NCBI GenBank assembly: GCA_016789405.1 | Contig: JAEUPQ010000034.1 | Coordinates: 1 to 64,000 of the forward strand | From: Lysobacteraceae bacterium | Lineage (GTDB): Bacteria; Pseudomonadota; Gammaproteobacteria; Xanthomonadales; Xanthomonadaceae | Length of the DNA stretch: 64,000 bases | Direction of reading: 5' to 3' | Shown: positions 40,111-44,470 of the stretch, in pieces | Position numbering within the stretch: position 1 is the stretch's first letter | Layout: every line of letters starts with the position of its first letter | Position numbers and translations under genes: made by a program | Notes under the pieces: generated by a model | Seen by the model: only the letters and a program-made list of their open reading frames with translations | Databases searched by the model: none | Told to the model about the DNA's origin: nothing

Positions 40111-40746
40111 ATGCCGATGGCTACCCCACCCAACCCCTTCGTCCGCGCCAGCTACCTGCTGGCCGCCCATACCCCGCGCCAGCTGCCGCTCGATGGCGGC
40201 GCCGAGGTCGCTTTCGCCGGTCGTTCGAACGCCGGCAAGTCCAGCGCGCTCAACGCGCTCTGCCAGCAGAACGCGCTGGCCAGGGTGTCCAAGACGCCCG
40301 GCCGCACGCAGCAGCTGGTGTTCTTCGAACTGCCGCCGCACGAAGCGAAGTTCCTGGTCGACCTGCCCGGCTACGGCTACGCCAAGGTGCCGCAGGACCT
40401 GCAGGCGCACTGGCAGGCCTTCATCGACCAGTACTTCCGTACGCGCCAGGCGCTGAAGGGACTGGTCGTCGTGATGGACATCCGCCATCCGCTGAAGGAC
40501 TACGACCGGCAGATGATCGCCTATGCCGCCGAACGCGGCCTGCCTGCGCACGCCATCCTGACCAAGGCCGACAAGCTCGGCCGTGGTGCAGCCGGCAACG
40601 TGCTGCTCGCCGTGCGCAAGGATCTGCAGGCCCAGTACGGCGATACCGTGAGCGTGCAGACCTTCTCCGCCGAATCCAAGGCCGGCGTCGACGAATTGCG
40701 CAGCGTGGTCGCGGGCTGGCTCGAGATCGGCCGCCCGGCCGCTTGA
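40111..40746 (+). CDS. engB: ribosome-biogenesis GTPase EngB (YihA/YsxC)
   Basis: 211 aa from MPMATPPNPF. G1 GRSNAGKSS. G3 DLPGYG. G4 TKADK. Matches E. coli YihA. The track's longer ORF is rejected. Confidence 0.9.
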   Translation: MPMATPPNPFVRASYLLAAHTPRQLPLDGGAEVAFAGRSNAGKSSALNALCQQNALARVSKTPGRTQQLVFFELPPHEAKFLVDLPGYGYAKVPQDLQAHWQAFIDQYFRTRQALKGLVVVMDIRHPLKDYDRQMIAYAAERGLPAHAILTKADKLGRGAAGNVLLAVRKDLQAQYGDTVSVQTFSAESKAGVDELRSVVAGWLEIGRPAA

Positions 40747-40805
40747 CGCCTGTCACGACACGGCGTTAAGAAGACGAAGCCTTTTCCCCCGAAGGATCCT
40801 CAAGG

Positions 40806-41735
40806 ATGTCCCCATCCCAGCGCACCGGCAGGCGCCGTCTCGCGACGGCCGCCATGACCGCCCTGCTGTCGTTTTCGCTGACCGCCTGCGGCGGCAGCAG
40901 CGACCCGGCCGCCACGGCCACCCAGAAACAAGACAAGACCGCCCCCCGACAGGACGTTCCGCCCGTGACCACCCCAGCCCCGCCGAAGATGGCCGCGCAG
41001 CCGCCATCGCCCAGCAGCATCCTGTACCTGATCTACCAGAAGGACGGCGACGGCGCGTTGTCGTACGAAGTCGACGACGGCGCGATCGCCACCTGGTGGT
41101 TCGGCCATTCGTTCGACCTCGGCGGCAAGCACTGGTACACGGGCTTCGCCTACAACACGCCTGAAATCTACGGCCCGAAGGACGAAAGCGCCGTGCCCGC
41201 GCCCGGCGACAAGGTCAACATCACCGCCGCGACGCTGTTCAAGGACGGCGCCGGATCCGAGAAGGAATGGACCATCGACGGTGCGTTCCCGACCATCGGC
41301 GAATTCGGCGCTTACCAGCGCGCCGGCGAGATCGACAAGACGCGCAGGATCGAGAGCAAGGACACCGGTGACGGCCGCATGGTGCTGGCGGTCCCGGTCA
41401 CGTTCTTCGAGAACGGCCTGGTGACGTCATCGTACGAAGTCTTCGTGTTCGACTCGGCCAACATGGACCTCGATGTGAACTACGGACGCAAACGCTGGGC
41501 CTATGCCGGCAACGTCGTGACCGGCGAGGACAACGATGCGGATTGCGGCCAGGAAGCCGGCGATCGCGCGTGCTATGCGACCAAGGGCACGCTCAGCTTC
41601 GGCGAAGCCGGCAGCGGCGGCCTGCCCGCCATCCGCATCGCGATGAGCGGCACCGGGGCCAATGCCGAAGCGGCGAACGGGGTCACCGAGTACCGCTACG
41701 ACACCGACAAGAAGCAGTACTTGGCGTCTCCCTGA
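40806..41735 (+). CDS. periplasmic lipoprotein, candidate cognate immunity protein (X-Tfi-like) for the downstream effector
   Basis: Lipobox LSFSLTACGG. Pro/Ala-rich linker, then a globular domain. Placed immediately upstream and co-directional with an XVIPCD-type effector gene, the usual X-Tfi/X-Tfe arrangement. Confidence 0.55.
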   Translation: MSPSQRTGRRRLATAAMTALLSFSLTACGGSSDPAATATQKQDKTAPRQDVPPVTTPAPPKMAAQPPSPSSILYLIYQKDGDGALSYEVDDGAIATWWFGHSFDLGGKHWYTGFAYNTPEIYGPKDESAVPAPGDKVNITAATLFKDGAGSEKEWTIDGAFPTIGEFGAYQRAGEIDKTRRIESKDTGDGRMVLAVPVTFFENGLVTSSYEVFVFDSANMDLDVNYGRKRWAYAGNVVTGEDNDADCGQEAGDRACYATKGTLSFGEAGSGGLPAIRIAMSGTGANAEAANGVTEYRYDTDKKQYLASP

Positions 41736-42048
41736 CATCCGCGCGGCCGAGACCCGGCAGCCGATGACCGGCACAACCGGTCTCGACCGCTGCGACCCAC
41801 TCCCGGTACGATCCCGGGATTGCTAGACTTCATCCCGCGTGTCGGACCTGGTCCGGCACGCAGGCAGTTTTGTTGACTGACCGTAGAGGGCTCATGGATG
41901 AGTCCGGTCGACACCCATGCCGGGCGGCCCTTCGGGGGCGTCCGGGCGCGTTTTCATGGTCGACCACACACAGAGGGTCCACGGACGGATCCGGTTGACG
42001 CGCCGTGGCGGCGATACCGCCACCCTCAACCCTACGGAAAGCACACAC

Positions 42049-44061
42049 ATGCCACGCGATTACAGCAAGACCGAAATCCTCGACATCATCGAGAAGGAAG
42101 CCAAGGAACGCGGCATCCCGCGCGACGACTTCCTGCGCTTCGCCTACATCGAAACCGGCGGCAAGTTCGACGAGACCGCCAGCCGCGGCGAGAAGGGCGC
42201 CAAGGGCCTGTTCCAGTTCACCCCGGGCACCGCGACCGCATACGGCATCCGCGGCCGTGAATTCGACCCCGTGGCCAATACCGACGCGGCCGCCCAGCTC
42301 TACCTCGACAACCGCCAGGCATTGGTCAATCGCCATGCCAAGGATGGACGCCCCTACCTGTCGGGCTCGGCGCAGCCGGATGGCCTGGACATGTACCTCG
42401 CCCACCAGCAGGGCGCCGCCGGTTACCGTTCGATCCAGTCCGCCATCGCCACGGGCGAGTTCAGCCGCGACGACACGCGCCGCAACATCCTGAACAACAT
42501 CAGCTCGAAGGATTTCGAGAAGGTCACCGGCCACAAGTTCGCCGACGTGTCGAAGATGTCGGACCGCGATCTGGCGACCAGCTTCACGGCCTACTGGGAC
42601 AAGAAGTTCGACCGCATCCAGATTCCGGAAAAGAACATCGGCGCGGTCACGCAGGGGAACACGCAGGCGACCACGCCGGCGCAGACCACGCAGACGCCCG
42701 CACAGACACCGGCCCAGACCCAGACGCCTGCGCAGACGCCCGCACAGAGCGGCAAGGGCATCGAGCTCAACGATGCGCATGCGCTCACGCTGAAGTACGA
42801 CCACGTGAAGTACGCCATGAGCGGCAAGATCGCCGGCGTCAGCGGCAAGAATCCGGACCAGGGTTACGTCGACTGCTCCGGCTGGGCGGTGACCCTGCAG
42901 AACGCGACGATGCGCGAGATCAACCGCGAAGCGGGTCGCGAGGTCTTCAGCAAGAGCGAGATGTTCAGTCCCGGCATGGACGGCGCCGCGATGATCGTGA
43001 AGAAGGCCGAGGAACGCTCGGGCGTGATGCTGACCGGTGCGCAGGTCACGCGCGGCGCGCTCAAGGAAGGCATGATCATCGGCGAAGACAACGGCCCGAC
43101 CAAGTGGGACGGCGGCCGTTATAAGGGCATCGACCATATCGTCATGGTCGTGCGCGACCCGAAGAGCGGCGAGCTGATGGTCAGCCAGTCGCGCGGCGGC
43201 GAAGGCGTGGAACTGAGCTCGCTCGACAAGTACCTCGAACGCAAGCAGGCGAACGGCGTGAAGCTCTACGCCACCGACCCGCTGGCCGAAGCGCGCACCC
43301 TGCTGCAGGACCGCAACCAGTCGCAGACACAGGCCACGCCCGCGCAGAAGCCGGCGACCCAGGACGCGCTGGCCGACGGCGTGCTCAAGCGCGGCGAGGA
43401 CGGCGCGGCGGTGAAGCAGTTGCAGACGCAGCTGTCCGACCTGGGCTTCAAGCGCCAGGACGGCAAGCCGTTCAACGCCACCGGGCACTACGGCGACAAC
43501 ACCGTCGCTGCGGTGAAGGAATTCCAGAAAGCCAACAACCTGCCGCCGACCGGCGAAGCCGACGCGGCCACGCGCGAGAAGATCCAGGCGCAGTTGCAGC
43601 AGCGCACCGCGACGCAGGCAACGCCTGCCGAAGCGACGCCGTCGAAGCCCGCGCCGACGCAATCGAACGTGGCGCAGCCTTCGCTGGCCAGTCCGCAGCA
43701 TCCCGACCACGGGCTGTACAAGCAGGCGCTGTCGAACCTCGAACAGCTCGGGTCTTCCGGCGGCTTCAAGTCGCGCGAGCAGATGGAGCAGGCCGCGGGC
43801 GCGCTTGCCGCGGACGCCAAGGCCACCGGCCTCAACCGCATCGACCATGTCAGCCGCAGCAACAACGGGCAGGGCTTCCTGATCGCGGTGCAGGGCGTGA
43901 ATGGCGATCCGGGCCATCCGGCGGCGAAGCATGCCTACATCGACTACACCCAGGCCACGTCGCAGACGCTCGAACAGAGCACGCAGATGGCCAATGCCAA
44001 GTCGGCCGAAACGCCGCAGGTCGCGCAGCAGACGCAGGAAGCGCAGCGCCGCGGACCGTGA
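42049..44061 (+). CDS. multi-domain secreted peptidoglycan hydrolase with a C-terminal XVIPCD-like domain: candidate antibacterial T4SS effector (X-Tfe). Domains: N-terminal lytic-transglycosylase (SLT), TPAQ repeat linker, Cys-peptidase-like region, PG_binding_1 domain, XVIPCD
   Basis: Start MPRDYSKTEILDII at 42049; the track's 44-codon extension is rejected. SLT motif GAKGLFQFTPGTATAYGI. DCSGWAV putative nucleophile. PG-binding repeat LKRGEDGAAVKQLQTQLSDLGF...AVKEFQKANNLPPTG. The C-terminus has GLNRIDHV and FLIAVQG plus the Gln-rich tail QVAQQTQEAQ; motif identity is from memory of published XVIPCD alignments. Confidence 0.7.
   Translation: MPRDYSKTEILDIIEKEAKERGIPRDDFLRFAYIETGGKFDETASRGEKGAKGLFQFTPGTATAYGIRGREFDPVANTDAAAQLYLDNRQALVNRHAKDGRPYLSGSAQPDGLDMYLAHQQGAAGYRSIQSAIATGEFSRDDTRRNILNNISSKDFEKVTGHKFADVSKMSDRDLATSFTAYWDKKFDRIQIPEKNIGAVTQGNTQATTPAQTTQTPAQTPAQTQTPAQTPAQSGKGIELNDAHALTLKYDHVKYAMSGKIAGVSGKNPDQGYVDCSGWAVTLQNATMREINREAGREVFSKSEMFSPGMDGAAMIVKKAEERSGVMLTGAQVTRGALKEGMIIGEDNGPTKWDGGRYKGIDHIVMVVRDPKSGELMVSQSRGGEGVELSSLDKYLERKQANGVKLYATDPLAEARTLLQDRNQSQTQATPAQKPATQDALADGVLKRGEDGAAVKQLQTQLSDLGFKRQDGKPFNATGHYGDNTVAAVKEFQKANNLPPTGEADAATREKIQAQLQQRTATQATPAEATPSKPAPTQSNVAQPSLASPQHPDHGLYKQALSNLEQLGSSGGFKSREQMEQAAGALAADAKATGLNRIDHVSRSNNGQGFLIAVQGVNGDPGHPAAKHAYIDYTQATSQTLEQSTQMANAKSAETPQVAQQTQEAQRRGP
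42661..42752 (+). repeat. imperfect 15-bp tandem repeats encoding (T)PAQT linker repeats inside the effector gene
   Basis: acgccggcgcagaccacgcagacgcccgcacagacaccggcccagacccagacgcctgcgcagacgcccgcacagagc encodes TPAQTTQTPAQTPAQTQTPAQTPAQS. Confidence 0.5.
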
Positions 44062-44098
44062 GCACGACGTTCCCGGGCGCCAACGCGCCCGGGAACGC

Positions 44099-44470
44099 TC
44101 AACCGGCGGCGTAGTGCAGCATCATCATGTAGAGGGCGGCGCCGCCCACGGCGATCGCGACGAACAGCAGCAGCCGCTTCACCGCGACCACGCGCACCTG
44201 CGCCGGCGTCTTTTCGTCGTCTCCGACTGCGTCGAGTGATTCGTCCTCGAACCCGACCGGTTCGCTGCTTTCCCAGTCGTCGACCACCGCGCGCGCAGCT
44301 TCCACGTGTTCGTCTGGCGCAACGACGAACACTTCGGTGTTCGCCGGCAGTTCGCCGACGGCGCCCTGGAGGAATTCGCCCTGCACGAAAGCCGGGATCC
44401 CTTCGGCTTCCATCAGCTGGCGCAGCAGGTGCGCATCGCTGAGATTGGCGGCACGGTAGACGATTTGCAT
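44099..44470 (-). CDS. DUF2007-like small protein with C-terminal TM anchor
   Basis: 123 aa from MQIVYRAANLSDAHLLRQLMEAEGIPAFVQGE (DUF2007-type N-terminus) with a C-terminal hydrophobic helix LLLFVAIAVGGAALYMMML. The track's 82-codon N-terminal extension is rejected. Confidence 0.45.
   Translation of the reverse strand: MQIVYRAANLSDAHLLRQLMEAEGIPAFVQGEFLQGAVGELPANTEVFVVAPDEHVEAARAVVDDWESSEPVGFEDESLDAVGDDEKTPAQVRVVAVKRLLLFVAIAVGGAALYMMMLHYAAG

Follow-up and report, generated by a model that had tools for sequence, protein, structure and literature searches.

We identified a two-gene locus whose products very probably form an effector and its immunity protein for the bacteria-killing type IV secretion system of the Xanthomonadales type (X-T4SS), orthologous to the X-Tfe XAC3634 and the X-Tfi XAC3633 of X. 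citri, respectively. The locus lies in a 64-kb window, by which we mean the whole stretch of DNA that was analysed, and consists of a lipoprotein gene followed by a gene for a 670-aa protein, as originally predicted. Both open reading frames are on the + strand and present a coding-type composition (GC3 of 0.87 and 0.89), which supports the locus as real. The pair extends an already well tested family of X-T4SS couples to an uncultured lineage of Xanthomonadaceae and would be routine alone; its by-products, a predicted second enzyme domain and a putative leader RNA, matter more than the pair itself. The features of the locus are as follows.

40806-41735, + strand: lipoprotein gene (X-Tfi-type immunity), 309 aa, homologue of the gene at the XAC3633 position
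Lipoprotein residues 1-28 (Cys28 at 40887-40889), + strand: signal peptide and LTAC lipobox
Lipoprotein residues ~29-65, + strand: disordered linker
Lipoprotein residues ~66-309, + strand: all-beta domain, confident model
41837-41873, + strand: intercistronic GC-rich hairpin followed by UUUUGUU (MFE fold), helix 1 having 3 compensatory pairs in locus L089
41882-41966, + strand: upstream copy of the leader module, in which the hairpin GGGCUC-AUGGAU-GAGUCC has a GGA loop motif and a GGUCGAC/GUCGACC helix lies around a UUCG-loop hairpin plus a short U-run
41969-42051, + strand: start-proximal leader module, with hairpin A (GGGUCC-ACGGAC-GGAUCC, ANGGAN loop), a GGUUGA/UCAACC helix around the variable hairpin B, UACGGAAAG (GGA-bearing ribosome-binding site) and the ATG
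42049-44061, + strand: X-Tfe effector gene, probable XAC3634 orthologue, 670 aa plus stop
42049-42648, + strand: soluble lytic transglycosylase (SLT) domain, residues 1-200, with Glu35 in IETGG and GLFQF at 53-57
42649-42753, + strand: low-complexity T/P/A/Q linker, residues 201-235, pLDDT < 50, 17% identity to the Xanthomonas orthologue
42754-43308, + strand: NlpC/P60-fold cysteine peptidase/amidase-like domain, residues 236-420, predicted catalytic set Cys276, His363 and Gln380
43384-43617, + strand: PG_binding_1 domain (PGB), residues 446-523, 65.7 bits
43684-44058, + strand: XVIPCD secretion/VirD4-recognition domain, residues 546-652, then a Gln-rich tail, residues 653-670, ending RRGP
44070-44095, no strand: inverted repeat with perfect 10-bp arms (TTCCCGGGCG and CGCCCGGGAA, spacer CCAACG) where the effector and DUF2007 genes converge, read from the sequence

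The C-terminus of the effector links it to the X-T4SS. The XVIPCD is defined by the motifs GLxRIDHV and FAVQGxxDPAH, a Gln-rich tail and a basic residue close to the C-terminus (PMC10432156, PMC8740702). Our effector presents GLNRIDHV at residues 594-601, FLIAVQG at 610-616 and GDPGH at 619-623, followed by a tail with nine Gln in the last 40 residues (QVAQQTQEAQ at 657-666) and the C-terminal end QRRGP. In this region the XVIPCD profile PF20410 scored 89.8 bits (E = 1.9e-25), far beyond its gathering cutoff of 24.9, and the last 135 residues aligned to the solved XVIPCD of the X-Tfe XAC2609 (PDB 7mu9; E = 1.4e-22) with HPD, GLxRIDHV and AVQG..DP.H kept. The original prediction had named this domain from its motifs, all of which we located, and both matches bear it out; its reading of the locus as a T4SS effector and its immunity gene is likewise upheld by the XVIPCD match, by the conserved upstream lipoprotein and by an experimentally tested orthologous pair. 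Binding to the all-alpha domain of VirD4 and T4SS-dependent transfer have been shown for XAC3634 and XAC2609 (PMC8740702). The XAC2609/XAC2610 pair and TfcB of S. maltophilia (PDB 7r6s; E = 6e-16) resemble our locus in XVIPCD fold and motifs, peptidoglycan-binding domain, lipoprotein immunity partner and secretion route, but the toxic domain of XAC2609 and TfcB is a GH19 glycoside hydrolase and not an SLT domain with a predicted NlpC/P60 domain. The window, translated in six frames, yielded no further XVIPCD.

The orthology to XAC3634 was traced through Xanthomonas proteins. Aligned over 621 positions, the effector is collinear with and 54% identical to P0110 of X. phaseoli, whose numbering agrees with that published for XAC3634 at each of nine residues (E35, P514, D515, D560, F572, V574, D580, P581 and P597); both P0110 and P0109 equal published XAC3634 in residue numbering and in the C-terminus QRSQTRSVG. 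Just 5' of the effector gene, the Xanthomonas locus has a 252-aa gene without Pfam match whose product is 43% identical to the lipoprotein described here. Our pair thus shares with XAC3634/XAC3633 a collinear architecture, the same Glu35, PG_binding_1, an XVIPCD with HPD, RIDHV and AVQG..DP, a basic C-terminal end and a partner lipoprotein gene of ~300 aa upstream. XAC0466 was also considered as the orthologue and rejected: it is a GH19 enzyme, and residue numbering and neighbours indicate XAC3634. Experiments on XAC3634 have shown that it cleaves peptidoglycan, that the E35Q variant is inactive, that the lipoprotein inhibits it and that it kills E. coli by contact via the X-T4SS (Oka et al. 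2022, PMC8740702), cleavage being obtained with XAC3634(1-513) and inhibition with XAC3633(40-300). The 630-aa XCV3751 of X. euvesicatoria, reported as a homologue of XAC3634, was secreted in vitro independently of the T4SSs of that species, a point against T4SS delivery. Several differences separate our pair from that of X. citri. It lies between engB and DUF2007 whereas the Xanthomonas pair has a cop-glmS neighbourhood, and its XVIPCD carries insertions of 1 and 3 residues. Four mutated XAC3634 positions differ here, among them F572 (Leu), P597 (Thr) and, in the MAFFT alignment, D580 (His), whereas the phmmer alignment keeps the DP at this last position as GDPGH.

The lipoprotein presents the features of an X-Tfi, namely a signal peptide, a lipobox and a predicted folded periplasmic domain. 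Its N-terminus carries the proposed LTAC lipobox (L25-T-A-C28) alongside a basic N-region and a hydrophobic stretch, and the lipobox Cys is kept in 50/50 homologues that include the N-terminus. A Cys pair (247/256) is also conserved among the homologues. The immunity-gene position ascribed to the lipoprotein proved general, with the gene immediately 5' of the effector gene in 17/17 loci examined, and at least 16 effector and lipoprotein matches were apparently paired on one contig in the homologue searches. Neither sequence search nor fold search returned a solved homologue of the immunity protein.

The genomic associations of the family point in the same direction. In Pseudoxanthomonas, the orthologous pair directly follows a complete X-T4SS cluster, the order in P. 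yeongjuensis (L024) being virD4, virB7 (N0/TcpQ-like), virB8, virB9, virB10, virB11, virB1 (SLT), virB4, virB6, DUF4189 (Tpf), lipoprotein and effector. Linkage of the vir cluster and the pair was also found in L017, L021, L025, L028, L032 and L096, and in L095 and L097 the pair is flanked on each side by another XVIPCD effector. Alternatively, the pair could be an orphan or a relic, its genome having lost its X-T4SS or never possessed one; the lipoprotein would then be kept as a defence against the effectors of neighbours and the effector would stay undelivered. As first noted, T4SS structural genes are absent from the window ORFs scanned; in addition, the genes around the pair are housekeeping ones (engB ... 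DUF2007/kdp), unlike the surroundings of the vir-linked Pseudoxanthomonas copies, and the source genome is a MAG, seen here as a 64-kb window. We nevertheless consider this scenario unlikely. The effector ORF is intact with all catalytic and XVIPCD key residues retained, and the pair and its leader are kept at the same site across a clade with effectors 71-94% identical. Dispersed genes are normal for this class of effectors, most X-Tfe genes of X. citri lying away from the vir locus (PMC6536674). Finally, a search with a fragment taken from PDB 6gyb recovered X-T4SS-type VirB10 in 423 species genomes, many of them from Lysobacter, Luteimonas and Pseudoxanthomonas; two close-relative genomes (4.64 Mb and 4.06 Mb) had no match among the 120 matches listed.

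An X-T4SS effector is also the reading favored by the N-terminus of the 670-aa protein. Its ORF is open from an ATG at 41917 (714 aa), a start that we rejected. The 670-aa start at ATG 42049 is the real one because indels of 1 and 2 nt occur in relatives within the stretch 41917-42049, because independent gene calls begin at the Met equivalent to that of MPRDY and because this start gives Glu35 its published XAC3634 numbering. The resulting N-terminus MPRDYSKTEILDIIEKEAKER is hydrophilic, helical and part of the SLT fold, and by inspection it carries no Sec/Tat signal. SLT, NlpC/P60, PGB and XVIPCD folds are found together in one confident predicted structure. The lytic transglycosylase deduced from the motif GLFQFTPGTA (residues 53-62) is backed by a goose-lysozyme-like fold with the catalytic Glu present and by the invariance of E35 (78/78 aligned sequences), though its PF01464 score of 19.6 bits stays below the gathering cutoff of 21.3; the PG_binding_1 repeat was confirmed by its Pfam profile match. 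This sub-threshold score, together with the frequent occurrence of SLT, NlpC/P60 and PG_binding_1 in housekeeping autolysins, would suit a muralytic enzyme that is housekeeping or exported by Sec, is inhibited by the lipoprotein and has no role in interbacterial killing. We hold this to be very improbable given the missing signal peptide, the strong XVIPCD, the link of the family to vir loci and the killing by the orthologue via the X-T4SS (PMC8740702). The least credible origin is a phage tail-associated lysin or tape-measure fragment in a prophage remnant: the SLT segment does match a phage tape-measure protein (PDB 9b45, E = 1e-4) and the mid-domain family also occurs in proteins with PhageMin_Tail/Tape_meas_lam_C and Phage_lysozyme2, but the flanks present no phage genes, the composition does not shift, the chromosomal synteny is conserved, and an XVIPCD and an immunity partner are present.

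Between the SLT and PGB domains of this X-T4SS effector, the Cys-containing segment GYVDCSGWAV (residues 272-281), described initially as peptidase-like, can be specified as part of an NlpC/P60 fold. No part of the protein is better conserved than this domain, whose Cys-His-Gln/Glu set hardly varies among 163 relatives. It shows papain-like features, the Cys sitting at the N-terminus of a helix, the His on a strand and the third residue being polar. Profile searches gave mixed results. The mid-domain of the window itself had no match to Pfam NLPC_P60 (PF00877), and 7/21 homologues matched with a best E of 0.0016, below the cutoff, while a remote relative (P0505) matched at E = 0.001. A broad mid-domain profile matched MepS at E = 1.6e-5 in a proteome-sized search, and hhalign of the mid-domain alignment against MepS alone was not significant (probability 0.9%). 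The PDB profile search yielded penicillin acylase alone, a chance match. Compared with the NlpC/P60 endopeptidases MepS of E. coli and LytE/CwlO of B. subtilis, the effector domain would share the papain-like fold, the DCSG motif at the helix N-terminus, the His on the next sheet and the polar third residue. It differs from them by an extra helical insert of ~45 residues between the Cys helix and the sheet, by its sub-threshold Pfam score, by a third residue that is Gln or Glu and not His, and by its fusion to SLT and a secretion signal. In XAC3634(1-513), E35Q alone abolishes the clearing of M. luteus walls (PMC8740702), so the peptidase domain does not suffice for lysis under those assay conditions. 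The published XAC3634 scheme shows SLT, PGB and XVIPCD only and omits an NlpC/P60 domain (PMC8740702). The modelled NlpC/P60 domain of XAC3634-type effectors goes beyond this scheme, and we did not find it described in the X-T4SS literature consulted.

The second by-product is the intercistronic leader, which spans 313 nt with a duplicated module here against ~80 nt in Xanthomonas. The leader is conserved and non-coding. The start-proximal module matched our covariance model R1 with 100.3 bits, and homologous matches of 62-100 bits were found at the same place in 11 other loci. Compensatory changes affect 12/17 pairs, and the observed values were reached by 0/500 shuffles. DNA identity of this module to L001 is 94-97%, against ~85% in the flanking coding sequence. 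The upstream copy matched R1 weakly (41882-41946, 17.9 bits), equally so in every clade member, and its long helix is maintained in L087 via a G-C to A-U change. Rfam contains no family for the leader at E up to 1. A scan of metagenomes with a 22-nt leader block returned only two more contigs, both with one identical leader sequence, and neither the remainder of the window nor 80 X-T4SS loci contain the leader blocks. In the same 80 loci the motif was not detected beside virB7, where weak matches of 16-20 bits only, of uncertain meaning, were seen. We did not find this putative leader module between X-Tfi and X-Tfe genes, tandemly duplicated in this lineage, described in the X-T4SS literature consulted.

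Across all module copies the hairpin loops read ACGGAC, ACGGAU, AAGGAC, AGGGAC or AUGGAU, and the ribosome-binding sites read ACGGAAAG, AAGGAAU or GAGGAG. GGA is thus present in both elements, its count in the leader being not above the prediction from base composition. From motif and structure, the leader looks like a CsrA/RsmA binding site: control by CsrA/RsmA is predicted because the ANGGAN loops and the GGA-bearing ribosome-binding site fit such binding, as in the CsrA-bound 5' UTR of the X. citri virB7 operon (Cenens et al. 2020, PMC7286519). That UTR, a leader of ~240 nt, likewise contains GGA motifs, including one within the ribosome-binding site, and regulates X-T4SS functions; the leader described here differs in preceding an effector gene and in its defined covarying structure. 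The structured leader probably restrains translation of the effector.

In the mechanism that we propose, the effector would be made in the cytoplasm without a Sec signal, its XVIPCD would dock on the all-alpha domain of VirD4, and it would be passed via the T4SS into a neighbouring Gram-negative cell. The PGB domain would attach it to the sacculus, where SLT would cut glycan strands and NlpC/P60 probably peptide stems too, resulting in lysis. The periplasmic lipoprotein would neutralise effector reaching the producer's own periplasm. A. baumannii has a bifunctional T6SS effector, Tse4, that is both a lytic transglycosylase and an endopeptidase. As with Tse4, one secreted antibacterial effector would attack both glycan and peptide of peptidoglycan, the peptidase activity being predicted here; the secretion system differs and no sequence relation was detected. 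We tentatively advance a wider reading, conceivable but somewhat short of probable, in which XAC3634-type effectors are two-enzyme toxins, with a catalytically competent NlpC/P60 beside the lytic transglycosylase, and in which toxin synthesis is gated by the covarying leader RNA, which would place toxin translation under CsrA/RsmA without involving the co-transcribed immunity gene. A strictly conserved cysteine-peptidase domain in a 'lytic transglycosylase' effector raises the questions of whether one immunity protein blocks two active sites and whether glycan and peptide bonds are both cut. A structured RNA between antidote and toxin suggests how the toxin may stay below the level of the antidote, and a leader limiting the toxin agrees with recent work in which these immunity proteins were found to guard mainly against self-intoxication (cis-protection; PMC10933484). 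The peptidase and leader readings are both directly testable in X. citri, where strains and assays are in place.

Other signals of transcription were also considered. No sigma-70 promoter sites were found in a scan of 40600-44300. The hairpin at 41837-41873, uncalled in the consensus terminator scan, may act as a partial terminator or a stabiliser after the immunity gene. The inverted repeat at 44070-44095 was uncalled in the same type of scan because it has no T-run, and is probably a bidirectional terminator.

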